Below are positions 21,305-32,000 of a DNA stretch of 32,000 nt, in pieces (positions within the stretch are counted from its first letter, which is position 1; each line of letters starts with the position of its first letter). Under the pieces are notes generated by a model. It had not been told where the DNA came from. It ran no database searches and saw only the letters and a list, made by a program, of their open reading frames with translations. Origin of the DNA: an uncultured Pseudomonadota bacterium (GTDB taxonomy: Bacteria; Babelota; Babeliae; Babelales; RVW-14); assembly GCA_964534555.1 (NCBI GenBank), contig CAZHRK010000001.1:500600-532599 (forward strand), given 5' to 3'. The translations under genes and the position numbers were made by a program.

Positions 21305-21450
21305 ATTAAGTAAAAAAGCTAATTTCTTTACAATAAAATTACTCAATACTTACACTTTGTCTCCAAATAAGCACGCGCTCATTCAGGCTAATTACTCTAA
21401 TTTAAATAATATACGTAGTGCATGAACAGAGGTTCTTAAAAGGAGCATTA

Positions 21451-24400
21451 ATGAAAAAGGTCTTTGAGTCATTACGTTTGTGTAGCGTAATGCTACTAGT
21501 AGCTCATTTTAATGTGAGTGCTCGTATTGATTTTGGAAGCAAAAATTCAATGCTCTCCTTTGGTTCAGATGCAAAATTCAGTGTTAACTCTTCAAATCTT
21601 TCAATCCCAGGAACACTTAAATTAGATGAATCAACGCTTGTTAGTGGTTCTGAATTTGCTTTTGATGATGGTGCGCTGATTGTTGGATCAAGTGAGTCAA
21701 ACTTTACAGGCGCGTATGATCCATCATCTGACGACACGATTAAGCTTAATGGTGACAGCATTTTTAATGCTGGTGCCGGCACAGTCCTTAAAGCCCTTAA
21801 TGTTTCAGGCACCGGAAACCTACTAACCGGTCAGCCTACATTTGATTCAGCTATTACACTTGCTGACAACACCACTGAGCTGGGCATTGGGATCAAAAGC
21901 AAGCTCAATAAAAATATTGTTCTTAACGGCGGCGCTGTGACTTTGCACGATGATTTAGCTCTTGCTGATCATGTTAAGCTTTCTGGTAACGGTTCAGTTG
22001 ATCTTAATTTTAGGCAGCTTAGCCTTGGAAGCTTTTATCAGACTCCTTGGTCTGGCGATTTGACGTTTTCTAATGCACTTGATATCGAGCTTAATGGTTC
22101 TATAGAGCTGACAGGTTCATGGACCTTTGATGGTCTTTGTGTGATTAATGGTAATGGCGCTGTTATTGACTTAACCTCCGGTGGAAGCTTAATTATTAAC
22201 GATGATGCTACCTTAGTGCTTTACAATGTTATTATTAAAGGCATAGGAAGTGGCCTTGGTGGTGATATTGTTCTTGCAACAGCAACAAGCTCAATCAAAA
22301 CAACAAATACAGAATTAAGTTTTGCCGGAAACAAAACATTTACGATAGGTAAGATTGTTGCAAATGGACCTACAACCTTTGCCGTTGGTCCTCATTCATG
22401 CGTATTCTCATCACTTGGTATACTTGCCGCAGATGGCTCAGTAATAACAGTTGATTTCCTTGATTCAGAATCAACTCCTGGTGGTGTGTTTGCGCCAGAT
22501 GATGTCCTTGATCCGCTTAATGCTGGTTCGAACGTTAATGTTAATCTTACGAATAATGGCTACATTCGTAATGCCGTTGGCTCGTCTGAATCAACGCCGT
22601 CAACAGATCCTGGTGCGATTGATCTTCTAAGCGGTAACGTAACATCTGATGTTACGCTCTCAAAAGAGCTGTTTCTTTCACCGTCACAATTTATAAAGAT
22701 TAATGGGAATGTTGTACTTGATGGTCAAGGCACACGTATTCATTTTTCTGGTGACAAGCCACAACTTATTATTAAGCCAGGCAAAACGTTAACGCTTAAA
22801 AACGTTACGCTTGATAATCTTACACAAAATACAATCGATATTAGGTTATCAAGCAATCCATCATCAGCAGGTGCTCGATACGGTACTGGGGTTTTAAAGA
22901 TTGATAAAAATGTTACGTGGGTCCTTGATACAAGTATCTCTTTTTCAAGCGGTAAAATTGTTGTGCTCCCAACAGATGATGGTACAAATATTTTCAAAAT
23001 GCGTGCCCCTGCAACAAGACAAAGCTTTAGCCTTGCTCCGCGTGATATCGATGCAGAGTCAACTCAAGCAGAGCGCAATACGCACCGTGGTGCAAATGCG
23101 ATTTTAAGTCTTGGTAATAGCACTCTTCAGCTAGAGAGTATTACATTTGATGGCCTTGAGTTTACTCATGCCGACTATACAAATGAAATTGCAAGCCCTG
23201 CGATTGCGCTTTCTGGTGATTCAACTGTTAATGTTGGTAGCTATAAAGTTTTTGGTCAGCCAGCGTCAGATGCGCTTACGCCTTTTGTAACAAAAATGAA
23301 TTTCTTTGTTGAAGGCGCGGGCAATGGTTTAATTATGACTAATGACAGCAATAAACTTCAGGGATCAATTTTGTTTGGTGACGTTGCTGAAAACAATCTT
23401 GAAATCGCTTTTAACTACACGCCAAATATTCCAGCGCGCACCATTTCACAGACAGAGCGCTTTATTACTACTCAGTCAAATGACGTAGTGCCTATTAACG
23501 AGCCTACTGCGGTTGTCCCAGCAAAAGTGCCGCTGCTCGTATTTGCTGGTGACCCAGGGATGTTTGTTTTTTCAGAAGAAGGAAGTGCCCAATTAACATT
23601 TAATGCTGTTGAGTGCGCACTCCAAAACCTTGGTGACAACTCGTTTATTCTTGATGATAACAGCGTGGTGCGCTATAACACACTGTATCTGTATGATTAT
23701 CCCGTTAAGCAGCAATCAACCAATACTCGCTACTTTGGTACAACGCGTGGAACAAGCTTTTTTGATGCGTCATTTGCAGTTAGAAGCGCTTTGGCAAAAC
23801 AGCAATCAGCTAAGAAAAAGCCATGTGCCCTTCAGCTTAAATATAAAAAAGCTCGCGCTAAACATAAAAAAATGGCCTCAGAGGCACGCAAGCGAGAGCT
23901 TGCTGAAGAGGTTCAGGTTTCTACCAATCACCCAGAAAATAACGTCATGAGGTCTAGCTCACGAGCATCGCTGCGCACTTTTACTATTCCTACTGGGATT
24001 ACAAGTGTTGATAGTGTTGTTGATGCATCAGGATCAGCATATAGTGGCGCGTATCTTTTTAAAAAGGGCGCTAATGTATCAAATATTAAATTCGATGCAG
24101 GAAGTCCTTTTGATGGATACCTGACAGACGGTATTACCCTCAGCACAGACCCATCGCAAGGAGTATCAATTGATAGTACTCATAAATTATATATAGACAC
24201 GACTCCTGATGATGTTGCAAATTATTTAATTATTAACAAAAGCTGTACTATTGATTGTTCCGCACTTGTTTTTAATCCCGCGCAGGTATCAGGAGACGCA
24301 GTAATCAAGCGCTCGCAGCTTGCAATAAAAATTCCTGATCCATCTACTCGGGTTATTTTGACCGGAGTTTTGACGCTGCCCCTTGGTGCTGTACTTACTT

Positions 24401-25344
24401 TTCTTGATAAAGGTGATGTGAAAATTCATGCAGGGTTTAGTGTTGTATATGAGGTTTCTGATACTACAGTTCCTTTACACCAATTACCTGTGATCAACAT
24501 AAGTAATGAAACTAAAGCATCAGTGGTACCTGTATCTGCTTTTTCTTCACCTATTACCACAACTGGTCGTGGATATTTAAGGCTTGAAGACAAAGCACAG
24601 CTAGATCTTTCGGGGAACGCTCTTATTGCTGGCCCAGCAACAGTTACTTCTGCTCTTGAGTATCAAAATCATGAATTAACAATCGAGGTTCAGCCTGAGG
24701 CTTATTTACTTCTGGGAGATGCGAGTGGCAATAGCGCCGTCCTATGCAGCAGAAATAGTGTTTTTGCACTTGTTAATAGAGGTAAGGTTTATATTTACGG
24801 TGGGTCGAGTTTGTTAATCAATACAGCACTTGATGGAGTCACACCGGCTCCAGGACGGTTAAGCTATTTCGAGCATAAAAATGGATCATATTTCAATTCT
24901 ACTGGGACATTGTGCATAGGTGACAATAGCTTAAGTGGTGGTGTTCCGTTGCAATCAAATTTTGAGCTTCAAAGCATGTCTTTAGAGGGTACTGGCTCGG
25001 TGAAATTTATTACATCAGATTCATCATTCCCGGGAATTACGGCTGTGCAATCACCAAAGTCGTCTTTCTCTTATCCACTTGCTAGTGTGAGCCCGCTTAC
25101 GATTGTTGCTACGTTTGCAAATATTGATACCACAAGATACCCAACATCATATGTCTTCTTTAAAGATAATAAGTGGACGCTTATTACAAAAAATGGTGTT
25201 ACTGTTCAGCTTGATGCTGATGAATACCCAAATTATGAGGATGCTGATGGTGACATCCACTGTGATACTAATTCGACCAATCTTAATTTTGTTGTAAAAC
25301 CAGATGGTAAACGTATTTATGCAAATGGCACAATCAAAAATTAA
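21451..25344 (+). CDS. large secreted repeat protein, beta-helix-like by composition (hypothetical; gene A of cluster)
   Basis: 1297 aa from ATG 21451, 5 nt after AGGAG (ORF open from GTG 21418). N-terminal signal peptide MKKVFESLRLCSVMLLVAHFNVSA. Rich in G, N, T, S and short alternating hydrophobic stretches. Contains the WTFDG..INGNG..IDL module shared with gene D. Has no C-terminal aromatic beta-barrel signature. Confidence 0.85.
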   Translation: MKKVFESLRLCSVMLLVAHFNVSARIDFGSKNSMLSFGSDAKFSVNSSNLSIPGTLKLDESTLVSGSEFAFDDGALIVGSSESNFTGAYDPSSDDTIKLNGDSIFNAGAGTVLKALNVSGTGNLLTGQPTFDSAITLADNTTELGIGIKSKLNKNIVLNGGAVTLHDDLALADHVKLSGNGSVDLNFRQLSLGSFYQTPWSGDLTFSNALDIELNGSIELTGSWTFDGLCVINGNGAVIDLTSGGSLIINDDATLVLYNVIIKGIGSGLGGDIVLATATSSIKTTNTELSFAGNKTFTIGKIVANGPTTFAVGPHSCVFSSLGILAADGSVITVDFLDSESTPGGVFAPDDVLDPLNAGSNVNVNLTNNGYIRNAVGSSESTPSTDPGAIDLLSGNVTSDVTLSKELFLSPSQFIKINGNVVLDGQGTRIHFSGDKPQLIIKPGKTLTLKNVTLDNLTQNTIDIRLSSNPSSAGARYGTGVLKIDKNVTWVLDTSISFSSGKIVVLPTDDGTNIFKMRAPATRQSFSLAPRDIDAESTQAERNTHRGANAILSLGNSTLQLESITFDGLEFTHADYTNEIASPAIALSGDSTVNVGSYKVFGQPASDALTPFVTKMNFFVEGAGNGLIMTNDSNKLQGSILFGDVAENNLEIAFNYTPNIPARTISQTERFITTQSNDVVPINEPTAVVPAKVPLLVFAGDPGMFVFSEEGSAQLTFNAVECALQNLGDNSFILDDNSVVRYNTLYLYDYPVKQQSTNTRYFGTTRGTSFFDASFAVRSALAKQQSAKKKPCALQLKYKKARAKHKKMASEARKRELAEEVQVSTNHPENNVMRSSSRASLRTFTIPTGITSVDSVVDASGSAYSGAYLFKKGANVSNIKFDAGSPFDGYLTDGITLSTDPSQGVSIDSTHKLYIDTTPDDVANYLIINKSCTIDCSALVFNPAQVSGDAVIKRSQLAIKIPDPSTRVILTGVLTLPLGAVLTFLDKGDVKIHAGFSVVYEVSDTTVPLHQLPVINISNETKASVVPVSAFSSPITTTGRGYLRLEDKAQLDLSGNALIAGPATVTSALEYQNHELTIEVQPEAYLLLGDASGNSAVLCSRNSVFALVNRGKVYIYGGSSLLINTALDGVTPAPGRLSYFEHKNGSYFNSTGTLCIGDNSLSGGVPLQSNFELQSMSLEGTGSVKFITSDSSFPGITAVQSPKSSFSYPLASVSPLTIVATFANIDTTRYPTSYVFFKDNKWTLITKNGVTVQLDADEYPNYEDADGDIHCDTNSTNLNFVVKPDGKRIYANGTIKN
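22120..22380 (+). repeat. protein-level module copy A1 (WTFDGLCVINGNGAVIDLTSGGSLIINDDATLVLYNVIIKGIG...GPTTF)
   Basis: Aligns by eye, position for position, with 28082-28345 in gene D (WTF[DE]G, GNG, [IL]DL, L.L.N[VL][IV][IL][KR]G[IL]G, TNT, FT.G, GPTT). Confidence 0.8.
22693..22970 (+). repeat. degenerate module copy A2 (IKINGNVVLDGQGTRIHF...LTLKNVTLDNL...)
   Basis: Keeps the ING...DGQG...I / L.LKNV.L spacing of the module but lacks the WTF anchor. Weaker match. Confidence 0.5.
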
Positions 25345-25358
25345 CAAGGAGCATGGCA

Positions 25359-27062
25359 ATGAACATGAATAAAGGCCTATTTATTGCAGCCATCCTTCTT
25401 GTGGGATGTGTACGAGCAGAAGCTGAAGTGAGTCATCATAAAGAGCGTGATGACCGTCGCGCTCGTAGGGCAGAGCATAAGCAAATGCCTCATGCAGAGA
25501 CCTCTGCGGAGCGCCTAACCACTCAAGAGCGTAAAAAGCTTATGTCGCGCTGGCATGAATTTCTTGCATCGCAAGATGAGCACGATGTAGCGCTTGGCCG
25601 TTATGCAGACTTATACCTTGTTCCTGCCTGGCCTGTGCACGCACGTTGGTTTGAGCATATGCATCAACTCGGGATTAATTTCTTATATTCATACGCTACA
25701 GATGCTCTGAGCTCGAGTGGTAGTGCGTCTGATGATGTAACGAGTGTTGCTTTTGGTCAATCAACAATCAAGCTAAGCGATATGCTTGCAGTTGCAAATG
25801 TAACACAAGCTGGTCGTGTGACATTTCGTGATGAATTCGAATCTAAATTGTTTATGGTTCCAGGCGCAGTCCCTGCTTTTCCTGCTGGTGCTAATGATAT
25901 TGCTGTTATTAAAACAGGTGGGTTAGCTTTAGTTGCTGCTGGTGCTGCGGGTGATGCAACTGTTCGATCAGATAATTATTTTGGTTATACGCATGATCTT
26001 TTGATCAAGCTTAATGGTCGTCAGGAGCGGTTTGGCGTTGCGCTTGATTTGACGCGATACATTCTGCCTGACCGTTTGAGCATCGGGGTGCACCTACCAG
26101 TTATGTATGTTAAGCATGGGCTTGATTTTACGATTGATACCGCTGACACTTTTGCAAAAGCATCAGCTGCAGGTGGGGGTGTTAACGTTGGTGCTTATGG
26201 TCCTGCTACTGGTCTTGCAAACTTGTTTCTTCGTCGTTATGGCGCTGATCCTGTACGTTTTGTTAAGGATGTTTTGCTACAAAAAGGCTTTAGAGAGCTT
26301 GGTGGAAGCGCGACCGGACTTGGTGATCTATCACTCTTCTTAGCCGGACAAATTGATGCGCCAGAAGTCGAGCGTGTTATTGTTGGCGCACGCGTACAGA
26401 TCCCGACGGGTAAAAAGGCAACACAGTCAAAACTGTGGGCGCCTGACCTTGGTAATGGCGGATTTACAGAGCTTTCTATGTACGCAGCAACATGCTTTCA
26501 GTATAACCGCTGGTTAAATCCTCATGTGATGGCTAGCCTTGGTGCTAGTGCCCCAGCACACGTTAATCGTCGTGTACCAAGGTATTTTTCTGTCACAAAT
26601 ACTACGGGGGCAGCACAACAACTTAATGTACTCCTTCGTGATCAGCCACTTGCCATGGCAGAGCGTGTTCAAGTTAATGATGCTAACACTGTTTCAGGGT
26701 GGGATACTGCAGTTAATGGTTTTGGCGACACGATTTCATCTGTCAAGGTAACGCGCGGGGTAGAGGTCAAGTTGCGCCTGGGTAACGTTTTTCAAGATGT
26801 GTTTGCAAAGCGTGGTACGGCTGATGTTTATTACGATATGCGCGCAAAAACAAAAGATAGTGTAAGTGGGCTATCTCGAGAGTTATATAACCTCGATGCT
26901 ATGCGTAAAAACACAAATCAGACAGAGCATCGTATCGGGCTTGAGTATAGCTACCAACCAAATCATGAGACACGCCTGCGTACGGGTGTTGTGTATACGT
27001 TTGCTGGAACAAATGTTGCTAAAACGCTTGAATGGAATACAACAATAAATTACTCATTTTAG
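25359..27062 (+). CDS. outer-membrane beta-barrel protein candidate (hypothetical; gene B of cluster)
   Basis: The ORF is open from ATG 25353. AAGGAG (25346-25351) is best spaced for ATG 25359. Signal peptide with an LLVGC lipobox-like site, or an AEA/EV SPase I site. ~50-aa highly charged segment follows, then alternating-hydrophobicity sequence. The C-terminus ...EWNTTINYSF ends in Phe, a BAM beta-signal-like feature. The GLGDLSLF...IPTGKK...LGNGGF block recalls the Phenol_MetA_deg-type OM channel family; that is from memory and unverified. Confidence 0.75.
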   Translation: MNMNKGLFIAAILLVGCVRAEAEVSHHKERDDRRARRAEHKQMPHAETSAERLTTQERKKLMSRWHEFLASQDEHDVALGRYADLYLVPAWPVHARWFEHMHQLGINFLYSYATDALSSSGSASDDVTSVAFGQSTIKLSDMLAVANVTQAGRVTFRDEFESKLFMVPGAVPAFPAGANDIAVIKTGGLALVAAGAAGDATVRSDNYFGYTHDLLIKLNGRQERFGVALDLTRYILPDRLSIGVHLPVMYVKHGLDFTIDTADTFAKASAAGGGVNVGAYGPATGLANLFLRRYGADPVRFVKDVLLQKGFRELGGSATGLGDLSLFLAGQIDAPEVERVIVGARVQIPTGKKATQSKLWAPDLGNGGFTELSMYAATCFQYNRWLNPHVMASLGASAPAHVNRRVPRYFSVTNTTGAAQQLNVLLRDQPLAMAERVQVNDANTVSGWDTAVNGFGDTISSVKVTRGVEVKLRLGNVFQDVFAKRGTADVYYDMRAKTKDSVSGLSRELYNLDAMRKNTNQTEHRIGLEYSYQPNHETRLRTGVVYTFAGTNVAKTLEWNTTINYSF

Positions 27063-27119: not shown

Positions 27120-27151
27120 GTGCGCCTGCATTTTGCGGGCGCACTTTGTTT
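27120..27151 (+). terminator. intrinsic terminator after gene B, 17 nt before the gene C start
   Basis: 11-bp stem GTGCGCCTGCA / TGCGGGCGCAC (one G-U pair) with loop TTT, followed by TTTGTTT. Confidence 0.8.
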
Positions 27152-27167: not shown

Positions 27168-27563
27168 ATGAAAAACTACACGAAAATCTTTTTGTTGATG
27201 ATGATGAACGCTTCATGTTTTGCAGCTATTAAGATTTCAAGCGGGAACCAGAAGCTTGAGGGCGTTAATGCCCGTATCACAACAAACAATACATTCACAA
27301 CAGGTAAAACTATTGTGATAGTTCCAAATAAAACAGGAAAGCTTGAAGGAATAAAATCAATTGAATTTGATGTCACCTATGAGCCTGTTGACGAAAAGTA
27401 TCGTGATGGTTTTAAAAATGCTGTTGTGATTACCCCAGCTCAAACACATGATCTTGAAGACATGCACGATCATGAAGAGAGCAGAAATGACAATAAAAAA
27501 GCATATGTTGTTCCTGATGTAATTATTGAGAAAATTGTTGCACAGCTTACTTCAGAGGAGTGA
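27168..27563 (+). CDS. small secreted protein (hypothetical; gene C of cluster)
   Basis: 131 aa with signal peptide MKNYTKIFLLMMMNASCFA and an acidic C-terminal third. Its last codons contain the SD (GAGGAG) of gene D. Confidence 0.7.
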   Translation: MKNYTKIFLLMMMNASCFAAIKISSGNQKLEGVNARITTNNTFTTGKTIVIVPNKTGKLEGIKSIEFDVTYEPVDEKYRDGFKNAVVITPAQTHDLEDMHDHEESRNDNKKAYVVPDVIIEKIVAQLTSEE

Positions 27564-27568
27564 TGGTG

Positions 27569-29479
27569 ATGATACGATATGGTTTATTAATCGCTATAAT
27601 ATTGTTGCCGCACCCCGATCTTGAAGCAGCTAAGGCAAAAGGTGTTAAAGCAGCATCAAAAAGCTCAACAATTAAAGTTTCTGGTGGCACAGCAAAAATA
27701 TCAAATGCTAATGCTTCTCTTGAAGGGTTAACTATTGAGGTCAGTGCTGCAAATAAACTTTCAGGATCATTCAACACAAATAATACAACACTAAAAATAG
27801 CATCTAATGGTACTAATTTGGTTGTTGGTGGGGTTACCAACGTCGCGAATAATACACTGCCAGCAAAGAGTGGTAATGCTAACCAGGATCTTGAATTTAT
27901 TACAGCGACATCGTTAGACGCGTCATTATCATTTGCTTCAGGTAAAAAGTTTAGTGGAACTATTGATGCCGCTGGTCAGTCTGTCAAAACAGATGCAACA
28001 CCGCGGACCTACAGCAGCAACGCACGCTTATTAAATATGCTCGATCTTGAATTTTTAGGAGAGACAACGCTCGCGACTCAGTGGACCTTTGAGGGTGATG
28101 CTGTTGTGAGTGGAAACGGAAATATCCTTGATTTAAGCCCAAGCGGTACGATTGTCGTCGCGCCAGATACCGAGCTTACACTTGCAAATCTTGTTTTGCG
28201 TGGTCTTGGTAACGCTCCTGGGCTGGGTAAAATCTATCTTACAGACAAATCTTCTGTGCTTAAATTAACAAATACAACTGTTGAGCTTGATGATGATTAT
28301 ACATTTACTCGCGGTGGTATTTATGTTGTTGGGCCTACAACAATTATTACTGCAGATCATACGCTTACTATCGATCAGCAGGCATCAATGACGGTTGATA
28401 ACGTAACTTTGTATTATGATACGCTTACTTTTTCTGATGATGCTAATATTGCACCAGAGATAGCTGATGAAAGCACAAATCCCGTGTATGTTGTGTCAGT
28501 TAATAATGGCCAGATACTCCATGCAAACCCAGAGGGTGGGGTGGCGCCTCCTGCTGGTGATGAGATTATCTCATCAGATCTAACGCTTTCAGAGCTTGCA
28601 GTTGCTTCACCATCAACCAAGTTTATATTCACTTCAAGCGCAACACTTGATGGTGCAAGCTTCCCGCTCATTTTCACTCGAGCAGATATTCCTGTGGTAG
28701 AAGTTGATGATGCAGTTGAGGCACGCTTTACTGATATTAGGCTTGAGCATGTCGCACCGTCATTAATTGGTCTTGGTGCTGGCGCAACAGTTGTTTTTGA
28801 TGACGCTGTTGAGCTTGATCTTGCAAAAGATGATGCGCTAGAAGATACATGGACATTTCGTGGTGCATGCAGAATTAATGGACAAGGAAGCACACTTGAT
28901 CTTTCGGCTGGTGATCTTGTTATCCAGGGTGCTGATAGCTCCTTACTTATTGAGAATATTGTTATCACCGGACTTGCAGGAAGCGCAATTCGCTGCACAG
29001 ACAATACTCAAACAGTAACATTTAAAAACGTAACCTTTTTGCTTGATGATACATTCACAATGACAAAAGGGCGTTTTGAAGTAGATGGCGTATGCCTTGT
29101 TCAAGGTGATGGCACGTTTGAATATGCATCTGCTGTAGCTAGTAAGGTTAATGCAGGCGGCACATTAGCTCTTGACGGTGCTACATTTCATTATGCTCCT
29201 GCCGTGGCAAATAGAGATCTTATTATTTTTGATACCGCTGCAGCACGTATGAGTCTTAATGGTGCAACGCTTTCTTCAACAACAACGGGTATGCGCCTTA
29301 CTCGCGGTACGCTTATTCTAGATCATAAAAATATCATTAATGCGTCAGGTAGCTCTGTATCAAGCGGAATATCGATTGGTAACGGATCCTCTGATTACGA
29401 CCTTGATATTAAACTTTTTCCTGGAGCAAGCCTTAACACAATCGCAGGAAGACTTATTTATGCAAACGTTGACGCATAA
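27569..29479 (+). CDS. secreted repeat protein, paralogue of gene A N-terminal region (hypothetical; gene D of cluster)
   Basis: The ORF is open from GTG 27560. ATG 27569 (or GTG 27566) is properly spaced from GAGGAG 27555-27560. Signal peptide MIRYGLLIAIILLPHPDLEA. Contains two copies of the WTFxG...G[NQ]G..LDL module. No C-terminal barrel signature. Confidence 0.85.
   Translation: MIRYGLLIAIILLPHPDLEAAKAKGVKAASKSSTIKVSGGTAKISNANASLEGLTIEVSAANKLSGSFNTNNTTLKIASNGTNLVVGGVTNVANNTLPAKSGNANQDLEFITATSLDASLSFASGKKFSGTIDAAGQSVKTDATPRTYSSNARLLNMLDLEFLGETTLATQWTFEGDAVVSGNGNILDLSPSGTIVVAPDTELTLANLVLRGLGNAPGLGKIYLTDKSSVLKLTNTTVELDDDYTFTRGGIYVVGPTTIITADHTLTIDQQASMTVDNVTLYYDTLTFSDDANIAPEIADESTNPVYVVSVNNGQILHANPEGGVAPPAGDEIISSDLTLSELAVASPSTKFIFTSSATLDGASFPLIFTRADIPVVEVDDAVEARFTDIRLEHVAPSLIGLGAGATVVFDDAVELDLAKDDALEDTWTFRGACRINGQGSTLDLSAGDLVIQGADSSLLIENIVITGLAGSAIRCTDNTQTVTFKNVTFLLDDTFTMTKGRFEVDGVCLVQGDGTFEYASAVASKVNAGGTLALDGATFHYAPAVANRDLIIFDTAAARMSLNGATLSSTTTGMRLTRGTLILDHKNIINASGSSVSSGISIGNGSSDYDLDIKLFPGASLNTIAGRLIYANVDA
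28082..28345 (+). repeat. protein-level module copy D1 (WTFEGDAVVSGNGNILDLSPSGTIVVAPDTELTLANLVLRGLG...GPTTI)
   Basis: Best match to copy A1 (22120-22380), with conserved anchors along ~88 aa. Confidence 0.8.
28850..29101 (+). repeat. protein-level module copy D2 (WTFRGACRINGQGSTLDLSAGDLVIQGADSSLLIENIVITGLAG...)
   Basis: Same anchor order as A1 and D1: WTF.G, ING.G, LDLS, L.IEN[IV]VI.GL.G, F.NVTF.LDD.FT.T.G. Confidence 0.75.
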
Positions 29480-29511
29480 ATTATAGTTTCTGAGTACTTA
29501 ATTAGAGTGAC

Positions 29512-29545
29512 AAGAGGCGGATTTTTCCGCCTCTTCTTGTTTTTT
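29512..29545 (+). terminator. intrinsic terminator after gene D
   Basis: Perfect 10-bp stem AAGAGGCGGA / TCCGCCTCTT with loop TTTT, followed by CTTGTTTTTT. Confidence 0.85.
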
Positions 29546-29606
29546 GCCTGATTTATTTTAGATTGAGCGGGTAAAATATTTTCACTTTAATCCGGAGCGA
29601 TTATTA

Positions 29607-30410
29607 ATGGCAGCGCGTATTCAAAAAATTTTCGCAGTGATGTTAGTAGTTGGATGTTCATTGAGCTCGTTACTTTCAGTTACAACACGTAGTGGGAAAG
29701 TAGTTGGAGTGCCACACACAGTAGTTTCTGGTAATTATGTTCAACCAAAATTACATAAAAAACTTGCGCCCGGAGAAATTATAGAGCTTCATGCTGGCTC
29801 TGTGTATGACATGAATGGTGCTGAGCTTGATATGGCTAAAGGGCACATTCATCTTGTTGGGAATGGCGTAGCTCCTATCACTATAAAAAACGGTACAATC
29901 AAAAATTTTACTAATAAATCATTAAAAATTGTTGGTAACAAGCCGCGTCTGATATTAGACACTCTTGAATTGTATCTTGATTCAAATATCTGTTTCCCTT
30001 GCAGTGTCCAGATTCAAGGTATTGTCCAGATTACTCGATTAGGCGAAGATATCTCTGATTATACTATTTATTTAAACGAGGCAGGCCAGGTAATTATTAT
30101 GCCAGAATCGCAGCTTCTTATAGATGCTATAGACGTAGAGTCTTGTGTTGAGTCACCGATTCTTTTTTCAGCTGAAACAAGCGAGCTTTTGCTTGCGTCA
30201 GTTGATTGGTTTATGAATGCTGATCTAAGGTTTATGCGTGGTCTTATAACAACATCGATTGTTAAATTCAAAGGCGACCGTTCAGCATACTACCCGCAGA
30301 CATTATTTTTAGGTGATGCAAAAAACAAGATAAATAATTCCTTTTTAGGTAGGGTTGATGCCACTGAATTTGCCACTGACTATGTAACTATTATCGATAA
30401 TAATAAGTAA
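29607..30410 (+). CDS. lipoprotein candidate with degenerate copy of the cluster module (hypothetical; gene E)
   Basis: 267 aa. Signal peptide with lipobox LVVG-C (Cys17, codon 29655-29657). The internal segment GHIHLVGNGVAPITIKNGTIKNF...LILDTLELYLD resembles the GNG / L.L.N module. GGAG SD lies 9 nt upstream. Confidence 0.75.
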   Translation: MAARIQKIFAVMLVVGCSLSSLLSVTTRSGKVVGVPHTVVSGNYVQPKLHKKLAPGEIIELHAGSVYDMNGAELDMAKGHIHLVGNGVAPITIKNGTIKNFTNKSLKIVGNKPRLILDTLELYLDSNICFPCSVQIQGIVQITRLGEDISDYTIYLNEAGQVIIMPESQLLIDAIDVESCVESPILFSAETSELLLASVDWFMNADLRFMRGLITTSIVKFKGDRSAYYPQTLFLGDAKNKINNSFLGRVDATEFATDYVTIIDNNK

Positions 30411-30460: not shown

Positions 30461-30532
30461 AAAGCCCACAGTGCTAATCTCATTCTGTTTTATACAGGAA
30501 ATAGTTTTGAGAGAGGAAACGCCGTGGGCTTT
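30461..30532 (+). promoter_or_regulatory. structured RNA element (terminator-like or translational control) enclosing the SD and start codon of the downstream gene
   Basis: The 9-bp outer stem AAAGCCCAC (30461-30469) / GTGGGCTTT (30524-30532) contains the GTG start and is followed by TTATTTT. Two inner hairpins: 30483-30499, and 30504-30520 whose loop GAGAGAG is part of the SD. Confidence 0.4.
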
Positions 30533-32000
30533 TTATTTTGCATACTTAATCGAATAGTTTTATGGGTTGTGATTTTTTCTTACGTTACAGTGAGTGGAGC
30601 GCTGCTTGCTTCATCTGCAGATGTTATTCGTATTGATGAAGTACAACTTCAGCGCAGAGCGGAAGTTGAGGGCGTGGGTTATAAAACTGCAAATCTAGAG
30701 CAGTTGCGCTCAGTCTGTGAGACAGTGTCTAATATTAAGGTACCTGCATTTGTGGGAGTCACATCATCAAAAATTCAAGATGTATTACGTGATTCAGGAT
30801 TTAATGCAAGAGATCAGTGGGCGGTGGTGCTGGATAAAGCAGATACCTCAAGGTCGTTAGGCGAGCTTGCGCCTGATTTTATAGACGCATGTCGTTATTT
30901 TGCACAAGAGCTTACAGCAGTCTGGAATACCCTTAGTGACAAGCCATCGCTTGATGAGCTTTTTGGCCTTGAAGGTCTAGATACTTTTCTTGCAGGCGTT
31001 GCAGCGCGTGGCGGCCGCCTTATGGTGCGCAGCACAGGAAAAGAGGATAAGGTTGGTCTTGCAAATGCTGGTGGAAATGAAAGCATTGCAAATGTTGAAC
31101 CTACGACAAAAGCTGTGCTTGAGGCTATGGGCAGGGTTATTGCATCGTATAGTAGTGAAAAATCTCTTAAGCAGAGGTTTGCTGCTGGCGATGAAACAGT
31201 TTTAACCGAGCATATTTTTACACCAGTTCTTATTCAAGAGATGATTGGTGAGGTTGAGGGTGAAGCTGTTCCTGCGTGCGGGGTTATGTTTACAGAAGAT
31301 CCTGCGGGTTCGATTAGTATGCAAACCAGTGGGGGAGATGGACTGCAATCAACAGGGATTGTTCTGATTAACGCTGCGTGGGGGCATAATACAGGTGTAG
31401 TTAATAGCTTAGTTCCCACTGATACCTATCGTTGTGTAAACGTAAGCGCAGAGCGAGTGATGATTTATCCCGTTGTCCGCAGAAAAACAAAACGACTAAA
31501 ACCTGGGGCTAGCGGTAAGCTTGTTGATGAATCAAACGACCTTTCTTTAAGTGAAAAGCCTGCGTTAGCGCGTGACCAATTAGAGCGACTGACGCAATTT
31601 GCCGGTACTCTTGAGCAATTTTATCAGCGTGCAATGGATATCGAATTTGTAGTTAAAGGTGAGACAATTTATATTGTCCAAGCACGCCCCCTTACCTATA
31701 GCAAAAACACTGTCAAGCCATCATACATAGACCCTTCGGCATATGAAGACCTTGCAGCATATAGTGTTCAGACAATCTGCTCGGCATCTAACGCAGTAAG
31801 CATACTAGAAACAGGGGAAGAACTTTTAGTGGCACGAGATATTGGCACTGCGCTGGAACGTTACCTGAGCACAGGGTTTAATAAATCAGCAGTGAAAGTT
31901 GTGCTTGTTGGACGGGACGCGCCAAGTACATCACATGAAGCAACAACCTTTCGGAGCGAAGGCAAAACTGTCTTTTTTAGTCGACGTTTTAATGAGATTG
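30524..32000 (+). CDS. PEP-utilising enzyme family protein (PpsA/PPDK_N-type ATP-grasp plus phosphohistidine swivel domain) with N-terminal hydrophobic signal/anchor; 3' partial
   Basis: Not in the ORF track because it runs off the window. I translated it codon by codon with no stop from 30524 to 31999. It aligns by eye with E. coli PpsA: VGYKTANL vs [33 protein letters not shown] vs [34 protein letters not shown] vs [29 protein letters not shown] vs MDIEWAKDG..LFIVQARPET. This is followed by ...[18 protein letters not shown], the TSH phosphohistidine context. The N-terminus [32 protein letters not shown] is hydrophobic. The start (GTG 30524 after GAGAGGAAA, or GTG 30569) is uncertain. Confidence 0.85.
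   Translation, partial: [492 protein letters not shown]

Follow-up and report, generated by a model that had tools for sequence, protein, structure and literature searches.

The subject of this report is a pair of adjacent genes, here called A and B, in a 32,000-nucleotide (nt) stretch of DNA from an uncultured bacterium of the phylum Dependentiae (TM6/Babeliales) (positions 500,600 to 532,599 of contig CAZHRK010000001.1, assembly GCA_964534555.1; hereafter the window). Gene A encodes a Sec-exported protein of 1297 amino acids (aa) that has no barrel domain, and gene B encodes a 567-aa outer-membrane protein whose predicted structure is that of the amyloid exporter FapF and of the COG4313 channels. 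The A-B pairing is conserved throughout the phylum Dependentiae, which points to a so far undescribed way of displaying large proteins on the cell surface. The barrel fold itself is known; the architecture, the phylum and the kind of partner in which it is found here are new, whereas a new secretion mechanism would be a further, conjectural step. We see about an even chance that B is a FapF-class translocator or anchor dedicated to A as a beta-helix-like exoprotein, i.e. that the pair follows the logic of type V secretion with a barrel of another family.

Gene B is predicted to encode a barrel of the FapF/COG4313 fold

An AlphaFold model of B, built from an alignment of 31 sequences, had a predicted local distance difference test (pLDDT) score of 79.7 and a predicted template modelling (TM) score of 0.72. 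It comprises helices at residues 8-40 (taking in the signal peptide) and 44-78, an irregular segment at 79-101 and a barrel at 102-566. When this model was compared with the Protein Data Bank (PDB) using Foldseek, the top 17 matches were all FapF chains (E 1.5e-12 to 4e-10, probability 1.0, TM to target 0.63-0.74). The next match was the COG4313 channel Pput2725 (4rl8; E 7e-10, TM to target 0.75-0.76), and then came the type Va autotransporter barrels EstA, BrkA, EspP, NalP and Hbp (E 2e-6 to 3e-5), with matches to FadL, OmpT and OmpG interleaved among them from about 1e-5. BamA barrels matched weakly (E 3e-5 to 9e-5, query TM-score (TMq) 0.18-0.19). The authors of the FapF structure list the same structural neighbours for FapF itself (PMC5557850). 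As modelled, B is a barrel of the FapF/COG4313 fold, which comes close to one of two possibilities raised in an initial annotation of the sequence, i.e. that B is a channel or anchor of some other family recruited beside a surface protein.

Strands were assigned from the DSSP string together with the indel-rich regions of the family alignment, which were taken as extracellular loops, and not from model coordinates. The first six lie at residues 102-117, 215-236, 240-260, 313-332 (with a kink at the GLGD motif), 339-348 and 371-379, and the remaining six at 388-397, 459-479 (with a kink at G467), 486-497, 521-532, 538-551 and 553-566. Three of the loops are large, i.e. L1 (118-214, 97 aa), L2 (261-312, 52 aa) and L4 (398-458, 61 aa). 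A conserved helix, FLRRYGxDPxRF, lies in L2. Because 12 strands give the sole topology in which both termini are periplasmic and every periplasmic turn is short, we read the barrel as probably 12-stranded. The initial annotation had left the strand count of B, and any POTRA domains or plug helix, to structure prediction; beyond these strands, the model has a helical N-terminus and no POTRA domain, and residues 79-101 are a candidate lumen plug by their position, which is comparable to that of the N-terminal plugs of FapF and the COG4313 channels.

The conserved motifs of the B family are GLGD, PT[GAS], NPH and RRVP, and N366 and N387 are also invariant or nearly so. GxGD and PT[GAS] are placed at the outer ends of the adjacent strands 4 and 5, 27 residues apart; P349-T350-[G/A/S] directly follows strand 339-348 and is the single true PTG in B. 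FapF has two PTG motifs (233-235 and 259-261), 26 residues apart, at the base of the loop between beta5 and beta6 (PMC5557850), while Pput2725 has conserved Asp92/Thr94, Pro119-Thr120-Gly121 and Asn130/134/166 (PMC4493636), and the PTG motif is described as common to the FapF and COG4313 families (PMC5557850). Judged by position and spacing rather than by superposition, we take the GxGD/PT[GAS] signature of B to be a trace of common ancestry at the sequence level. The protein ends in ...TINYSF, and the terminal F is invariant in 31 homologues; together with the modelled barrel this bears out the initial description of that end as typical of outer-membrane barrels inserted by the beta-barrel assembly machinery (BAM).

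The charged, helical N-terminal segment that had been noted from the sequence is likewise present in the model, as the two helices given above. Across the B family the length of this extension varies from ~30 to ~660 aa, with a content of charged residues (K/R/E/D) of up to 57%. At its end is a conserved amphipathic helix (R..R..L...W), and the near-invariant segment YADLYxxPAWP comes next. Two homologues, P0106 (989 aa) and P0142 (1028 aa), have long N-terminal extensions that are not K/R/E-rich, consisting of Ser/Thr-rich repeats with an amphipathic motif ...IKNSVRWVRxSLQTPF.... The LVGC sequence at the end of the signal peptide of B fits a lipobox, and we considered whether B is a lipoprotein; this was rejected as a family trait, most homologues having no Cys there.

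The B family comprises 491 clusters at 50% identity (E <= 1e-3), 294 of them with E <= 1e-30, and all of its named members are from Candidatus Babeliales, candidate division TM6 or Dependentiae. Pfam and NCBIfam scans of B and of 31 homologues (the latter at E up to 10) gave no meaningful match, and in particular none to POTRA or Omp85/ShlB. The POTRA profiles PF07244, PF08479 and PF17287 had no match in B, nor did PF13557 and PF03797, and PF13557 was also absent among the 31 homologues at E up to 10. No VRG[YF] loop-6 motif was seen among the conserved motifs. A profile of the whole B family matched, among PDB sequences, only charged or coiled-coil proteins, through the N-terminal region; a single-sequence query with B and a profile of the barrel alone matched none, and the best 150 matches listed in a hidden Markov model (HMM) search with the barrel profile were family members only, with no bridge to FapF or PF13557.

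Gene A encodes a modular exoprotein without a barrel

The A protein begins with MKKVFESLRLCSVMLLVAHFNVSA, followed by RIDF, which is a Sec-type signal, and it ends ...KRIYANGTIKN. Most orthologues have a similar hydrophobic leader followed by a conserved FGS(R/K)xS motif. The C-terminus is a small non-amphipathic domain, and there is no C-terminal PF03797 beta-domain in the sequence. A has no barrel by every test applied, and the signal, the C-terminal end and the missing barrel were all as first annotated. Pfam and NCBIfam scans found no two-partner secretion (TPS) domain (PF05860; NPNL/NPNGI) in A or its orthologues, and no meaningful match in A, its orthologues, its paralogues or 20 A C-terminal halves, the sole line returned for A being a repeat at E 0.24. 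No PDB sequence matched A, even with a 12-sequence profile of the A family. A homologue search with an alignment of the A C-terminal halves also gave no match, probably as its word filter was dominated by the K-rich linker.

The protein can be divided into an N-terminal repetitive module (A_N), a middle part (A_M), a basic linker and a C-terminal half (A_C). The repeats of A_N follow patterns such as INGNGxVLDLSxGG ... LxLxNVxIKGLG, and the module builds a paralogous family of 550-750-aa and 1250-2200-aa proteins, with up to four copies per protein. From this composition and repeat pattern, A is probably beta-solenoid or beta-helix-like. A basic stretch of variable length occurs at the same place in most A orthologues and in several, but not all, of the proteins that consist of the C-terminal half only. 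A_C terminates in a small domain whose end, ...F[TS]IxPDG..., is conserved. A C-terminal motif common to A (...RIYAN...) and to a 639-aa paralogue encoded downstream (...RLIYANVDA) was considered and dropped, as orthologues show two distinct conserved endings, ...F[TS]IxPDG... in A-type proteins and ...GxLxYxNV.. in those of the paralogue type.

A and B are linked in every informative locus

The initial annotation had described A and B as directly coupled. At their junction the TAA stop of A (25342-25344) is followed by AAGGAG (25346-25351) and by in-frame ATGs at 25353, 25359 and 25365. The gap of 8-14 nt holds the Shine-Dalgarno sequence of B; a terminator stands behind B and none was found within the pair. 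A and B constitute a bicistronic operon whose translation is probably coupled.

To survey A-like and B-like neighbours, one genome per species was scanned, giving 21 loci with a B homologue, of which 18 were informative (in L010, L017 and L018 the contig ends there), and two further contigs were added. A gene containing the C-terminal half of A was found within two genes of B in 18/18 informative loci, and in 20/20 when the two extra contigs were included. In 12 loci the A_C-bearing gene is immediately upstream of B on the same strand, with distances ranging from a 17-nt overlap to a gap of ~65 nt. One small open reading frame (ORF) separates A from B in L015, L016 and L019, mdh separates an A-like gene from B in L013 and L020, and in L009, whose contig starts just before B, an A orthologue is one gene downstream of B. 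Of the two extra contigs, L024 has a full A orthologue (1173 aa) directly upstream of B. In L025, an A-like gene of 1327 aa (HMM 393-1285, E 1e-131) and an ORF of 178 aa stand ahead of the most distant B homologue (24% identity). Because the pairing recurs in every informative related locus, it is far beyond chance. The initial annotation had named two outcomes that would together speak against a secretion role for B, namely a model of B as a FadL/MetA-type channel without passenger-handling domains and homologues that mostly lack A-like neighbours. B is indeed modelled as a MetA/COG4313-type barrel, but FapF, a polypeptide exporter, has that fold as well; and B homologues are essentially always beside A-like genes.

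The distant B homologues of L012, L013, L014 and L020 neighbour proteins of 454-636 aa that correspond to the C-terminal half of A only and have their own signal peptides; in L020 the N-terminal half of A is a separate gene. Judging from these C-half-only proteins, it is the C-terminal half of A that has been conserved as the partner of B.

Two metagenome-assembled genomes (MAGs) each contain two B loci (L001 and L019 in one, L003 and L017 in the other), and the module therefore occurs in two paralogous forms. Both B genes of the first MAG have their own A-like neighbour; in the second, the L017 contig ends before a possible A gene. In the form that we call type 2, the B homologue has a short N-terminus and a separate small gene is present between A and B (L015 3381-4097, L016 5039-5587, L019 4549-5166 and L025 4026-4562; 5'-truncated in L017 1-1281 and L018 2-1666). 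Its product has a basic N-terminus, one hydrophobic segment resembling a membrane anchor and a charged helix ending ...KRKxxLxxxLxQ...E, and by sequence it looks like an inner-membrane-anchored counterpart of the charged extension of type-1 B proteins. At L019 5187-6958, two overlapping ORFs of 313 and 312 aa take the place of an intact type-2 B homologue, which reflects a frameshift, a pseudogene or an assembly error.

Between the same genomes, identity was 20-58% for A_C and 38-71% for B, i.e. A_C diverges roughly twice as fast as B. The A_C and B distance matrices were congruent (r = 0.60, a value reached in 0/2000 permutations). The difference in rate fits a pair in which one partner is exposed and the other embedded in the membrane.

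One homologue joins an A-type module to a B barrel

Among 173 B-family proteins there is one, P0128 (807 aa), in which a non-charged N-terminal region, an A-type module (A-HMM 120-288, E 2e-14), is joined to a B barrel. The order of its parts is A-type module, short charged helix, PSWP pre-barrel motif and barrel. The contig that encodes it (L023 1-3975, from JGI metagenome 3300066520) contains two B-family genes in tandem, and the ends of their barrels are almost identical; the upstream copy has the usual K/R/E-rich N-terminus, which in P0128 is replaced by the A-type module, and small paralogues sharing the N-terminal sequence of the fused module are located downstream. Given the normal copy upstream and the paralogues downstream, P0128 resulted from recombination of a tandemly duplicated B gene with a member of the family. 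It is one observation, yet a classical 'Rosetta stone' that points to cooperation between A-type module and B barrel.

Proposed role of the A-B pair and alternatives to it

The idea of a secretion pair therefore survives from the initial annotation in a different barrel family: FapF has the same fold as B, the N-terminal helices of B are placed like the coiled coil of FapF, the linkage holds in 20/20 loci, and a fusion exists. In the mechanism that we propose, BAM would insert B into the outer membrane as a 12-stranded barrel, with its charged helical extension reaching into the periplasm. A would be exported by Sec, held unfolded or partly folded in the periplasm and handed to B, which would translocate A or anchor it at the outer membrane; both this step and the direction of transport are conjectural. 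The C-terminal half of A would be the part that works with B, while the repetitive N-terminal modules may form a variable, fast-evolving functional surface, e.g. for host contact in these parasites of protists. Export could be driven by the beta-rich solenoid folding once it is outside the cell, a source of energy also proposed for the passengers of autotransporters.

Several points weigh against this proposal. The importers of hydrophobic molecules in COG4313 have the same fold and PTG signature (PMC4493636), and because the fold is shared with them it reveals by itself neither direction nor substrate; PTG-motif mutants of FapF, moreover, still export (PMC5557850). B has no sequence-level link to FapF, PF13557 or any PDB chain, and its extension is an ER/K-type charged helix of extremely variable length rather than a heptad coiled coil. 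The cargo of FapF consists of small unfolded amyloid subunits and its function needs FapD and other Fap proteins, and no Fap genes were found around A and B, whose neighbours comprise mdh, dcd, ribosomal genes and paralogues rich in beta-strands. A could instead be exported by the type II secretion system of Dependentiae, which has two copies of GspD (PMC4776705). The AlphaFold model of A_C, made from a two-sequence alignment, had short beta-strands throughout with a pLDDT of 40, exceeding 50 only in the last ~60 residues. Adjacency and congruent trees are expected of any vertically inherited pair in one envelope operon. Beta-lactamase placed on the N-terminus of FapF remained periplasmic (PMC5557850), so the fusion in P0128 proves association and not export. 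A position of A outside the cell and a contact of A with B are both conjectural.

One alternative is that B is an uptake channel of the COG4313/SphA/FadL type for a host-derived hydrophobic or small molecule, A being an independent surface or secreted protein of the same operon or at most serving in ligand capture. By TM to target (0.75-0.76) the model of B fits the COG4313 channel no less well than FapF, a lateral gate has been proposed at the conserved D...PTG cluster in COG4313 importers (PMC4493636), Dependentiae rely on imported host metabolites (PMC6561590), and Fap accessory genes were not found nearby. We nevertheless think an uptake channel unlikely, as it accounts neither for the C-terminal half of A being retained next to B even at 24% identity and in duplicated modules, nor for the long helical extension in the periplasm that is missing from known COG4313 channels, nor for the fusion of an A-type module with a B barrel.

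Another alternative is a structural role, in which A and its paralogues would be periplasmic, B would be an outer-membrane anchor, and the charged helix (or the inner-membrane-anchored protein of type 2) would link the layers of the envelope. Such a module would replace the outer-membrane tethers that Dependentiae lack, and we hold it to be somewhat unlikelier still. In ten Dependentiae genomes no homologue of Lpp, Pal, OmpA or OmpM was detected (10.1101/2021.05.31.446380), the periplasm of Chromulinavorax contains dense, dark-staining material in electron micrographs (PMC6561590), and, as N-terminal fusions to FapF stay periplasmic (PMC5557850), the beta-rich module of P0128 may do so too. 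In type-2 modules the gene between A and B is for a single-pass membrane protein that has a charged helix. The layout of coiled coil and barrel also recalls the OmpM/SlpA tethers. However, no peptidoglycan-binding domain was found in the Pfam and NCBIfam scans, an extension of ~30-660 residues is hard to square with a fixed periplasmic ruler, and rapid divergence with expansion into paralogues, as in the A family, is more usual in exposed proteins.

A highly divergent type Vb pair (TpsA/TpsB, Omp85 superfamily), the other possibility raised in the initial annotation, shares with A-B the general logic of an exoprotein gene beside a barrel gene and a size of ~570 aa for B; it is effectively excluded, since no POTRA, ShlB/Omp85 or TPS-domain match was obtained in A, B or 31 B homologues at permissive thresholds, the BamA matches were far below those of 12-stranded barrels, and the N-terminus of B is helical and not POTRA-like. 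The accompanying observations that A has no TPS motifs and B neither POTRA-like sequence nor VRG[YF] were correct, as the profile scans and the list of conserved motifs agree.

Returning to B as a FapF-class partner of A, a broader form of this proposal, which we put forward tentatively and with distinctly less confidence than the narrower one, is a phylum-specific display system. In it a FapF-class barrel would be the dedicated translocator and anchor for a Sec-exported beta-helix-like family, as a 'split autotransporter' whose periplasm-spanning charged helix, or type-2 inner-membrane-anchored partner, also couples the outer membrane to the rest of the envelope. Its clients would be A, the C-half-only forms and possibly the clustered paralogues.

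To our knowledge, FapF is so far the only case of its kind: in some Proteobacteria this plugged barrel of 12 strands exports amyloid subunits, and the relatives of its fold import small molecules. In Dependentiae genome papers and full-text literature searches we found no description of the A family, the B family or the A-B pair. A and B define two sizeable families for which Pfam and NCBIfam have no model, B with ~490 clusters at 50% identity and A with many paralogues. If the proposal is true, recruitment for the export or display of proteins has happened more than once in the FapF/COG4313 lineage of barrels, and the type V logic of a passenger plus a 12-stranded barrel can be built from separate genes and another barrel family. 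It would also provide a concrete candidate for a host-contact apparatus in Dependentiae, which are obligate parasites of protists with signal peptides on nearly half of their proteins and no known adhesins or outer-membrane tethers.

Organization of the locus

The features of the locus are collected in Table 1. The window was matched in Logan assembly SRR14271332, and independent gene calls were used for start sites. The likely start of A is the ATG at 21451, given the spacing of its AAGGAG and the agreement of the independent gene calls on 1297 aa. For B the most likely start is 25359, because its spacer is 7 nt compared with 1 nt for 25353, and the database copy and gene calls concur; this confirms the size of ~567 aa given initially, and the strong terminator described behind B is also confirmed.

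Table 1. Coordinates of features in and around the A-B pair, in window numbering
Feature	Position	Strand	Basis
Promoter-like -35/-10 pair (TTTACA, 18 nt, TACACT)	21327..21356	+	Consensus scan; weak evidence, such sites being fewer than in shuffled sequence
Shine-Dalgarno sequence of gene A (AAGGAG)	21440..21445	+	5-nt spacer to ATG, read from sequence
Gene A, 1297-aa secreted protein, no beta-barrel domain	21451..25344	+	ORF 21418/21451-25344; orthologues of 1170-1360 aa at same position
Sec signal peptide of A, residues 1-24; predicted cleavage between VSA and RIDFGS (inferred site)	21451..21522	+	Read from sequence
A_N, residues 25-480, repetitive Gly/Asn-rich module	21523..22890	+	phmmer/HMM matches to 30+ paralogous ORFs in related loci
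A_M, residues 481-775, confined to ~1300-aa orthologues	22891..23775	+	phmmer matches to large A-type proteins only
Basic Lys/Arg-rich linker, ~residues 776-830	23776..23940	+	Charge profile; 18 K+R in two 40-residue blocks, 761-840
A_C, residues 831-1297, weakly conserved beta-rich half	23941..25341	+	Detectable only with orthologue HMM
Shine-Dalgarno sequence of gene B (AAGGAG), within A-B gap	25346..25351	+	7 nt to ATG 25359, read from sequence
Gene B, 567-aa outer-membrane protein; alternative in-frame ATG 25353	25359..27062	+	ORF reading, database copy, gene calls
Signal peptide of B, MNMNKGLFIAAILLVGCVRA before EAE (cleavage site inferred)	25359..25418	+	Sequence and family comparison
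Helical N-terminal extension of B, charged (K/R/E-rich) and presumably in the periplasm, residues 21-78	25419..25592	+	AlphaFold helices 8-40, 44-78
Conserved pre-barrel segment of B, GRYADLYLVPAWP..., residues 79-101	25593..25661	+	P89 and W91 nearly invariant; modelled as coil, pLDDT ~66-75
Beta-barrel domain of B, residues 102-567; probably 12-stranded, extracellular loops long	25662..27059	+	AlphaFold and Foldseek
G-L-G-D motif at kink in strand 4	26316..26327	+	G320, G322, D323 invariant
P-T-G motif at top of strand 5	26403..26411	+	P349, T350 invariant; third residue G/A/S; 27 residues after D323
Intrinsic terminator closing the A-B operon	27120..27151	+	Stem 27120-27144, 11 pairs (8 G-C), then TTTGTTT
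Cluster of 3 genes downstream, for secreted proteins that match no family (131 aa; 636/639 aa; 267 aa)	27168..30410	+	Gene calls

The ORFs at 1-19.6 kb of the window are arranged like the S10/spc/alpha ribosomal-protein operons, and of these S4, rpoA and L17 alone were scanned and confirmed. Between L17 and A are dcd, on the minus strand, and then mdh, with a spacer of 146 nt from mdh to A. The order rpoA-L17-dcd-mdh-A-B is repeated in Dependentiae MAGs, including an 806-kb contig of GCA_001468855.1. In many, not all, Dependentiae loci the A-B module occupies this conserved chromosomal position (defined by window 1-21304), and it therefore looks like a core, vertically inherited element and not an island. 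The GC content across the module, 0.39-0.47, is unremarkable, and an Rfam scan of the window gave no RNA element.

Downstream of the A-B terminator, the 639-aa protein is an A_N paralogue, belonging to the family of 550-750-aa proteins that trails A-B in many related loci. Its ORF may start at a GTG at 27560, overlapping the stop of the 131-aa gene by 4 nt, while gene callers start it at 27569-27571 (636 aa); with either start the two genes are tightly coupled. A second terminator is found downstream of B at 29512-29535. According to the gene calls on the Logan contig, window 30524-32000 (+) covers the first part of a PPDK_N (pyruvate phosphate dikinase / PEP-utilising) protein of 1445 aa, which runs past the window. 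In many related loci A-B is followed by two to four genes for signal-peptide proteins (e.g. L001 11716-19433, L006 11888-19305), which consist of an A_N-type module and a separate ~200-aa C-terminal domain ending ...GxLxYxNV.... In the window they are the 131-aa, 636/639-aa and 267-aa proteins. These trailing proteins could be further clients of B or partners of A.

Comparison with known systems

FapF (PDB 5o65/5o67/5o68; PMC5557850) is the closest known system by structure, with the best Foldseek match and a 12-stranded barrel, a number of strands that B probably shares. The two proteins apparently have the same order of parts, i.e. signal peptide, periplasmic helical region, linker or pre-barrel segment and barrel, both have PTG at the extracellular end of strand 5, and in both cases the barrel gene is at the 3' end of an operon, behind genes for Sec-dependent exported proteins. 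However, there is no detectable sequence similarity, and B is ~160 residues longer, with its three large extracellular loops. The N-terminus of FapF is a 40-residue trimeric coiled coil, whereas that of the B family is ER/K-like and ~30 to 660 aa long. FapF also has a disordered linker and a helical plug. FapF is encoded with fapA-E and the C39 peptidase FapD, both missing from the A-B locus, and its cargo consists of short amyloid repeats, compared with a 1297-aa beta-rich protein as the putative cargo of B.

The COG4313 channels, annotated as 'MetA-pathway of phenol degradation' (Pput2725, 4rl8; SphA; PF13557), are also 12-stranded, with a TM of 0.75-0.76, and share with B an N-terminal segment that by its position may occlude the lumen and a conserved Asp ... 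Pro-Thr-Gly cluster in the barrel wall. They differ in being importers of ~270-300 aa with no periplasmic helical extension and no linked exoprotein gene (PMC4493636), and the PF13557 profile fails on B and its 31 homologues.

OmpM/SlpA tethers consist of an S-layer homology (SLH) domain, a coiled-coil stalk and a porin barrel. B resembles them in having an N-terminal extended helical stalk and a C-terminal outer-membrane barrel, but SLH and other peptidoglycan-binding domains are missing from it, it has a far smaller barrel, and the length of its stalk varies. With type Vb systems A-B shares the arrangement of two genes, for an exoprotein and a dedicated outer-membrane barrel. In contrast to TpsA and TpsB, A has no TPS domain and B has no POTRA domain, 16-stranded Omp85 barrel (PF01103/PF03865) or loop-6 motif, and the order of genes in A-B is cargo first.

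Finally, the type Va autotransporters (EspP, EstA, BrkA, NalP, Hbp) differ from A-B in that here passenger and barrel are separate proteins, PF03797 is absent, and the nearest fold is FapF/COG4313. Their 12-stranded barrels are nonetheless the next-best structural match to B, the cargo A would resemble a beta-helical passenger, and the order of cargo, helix and barrel is the same, both at the level of the genes and within P0128.

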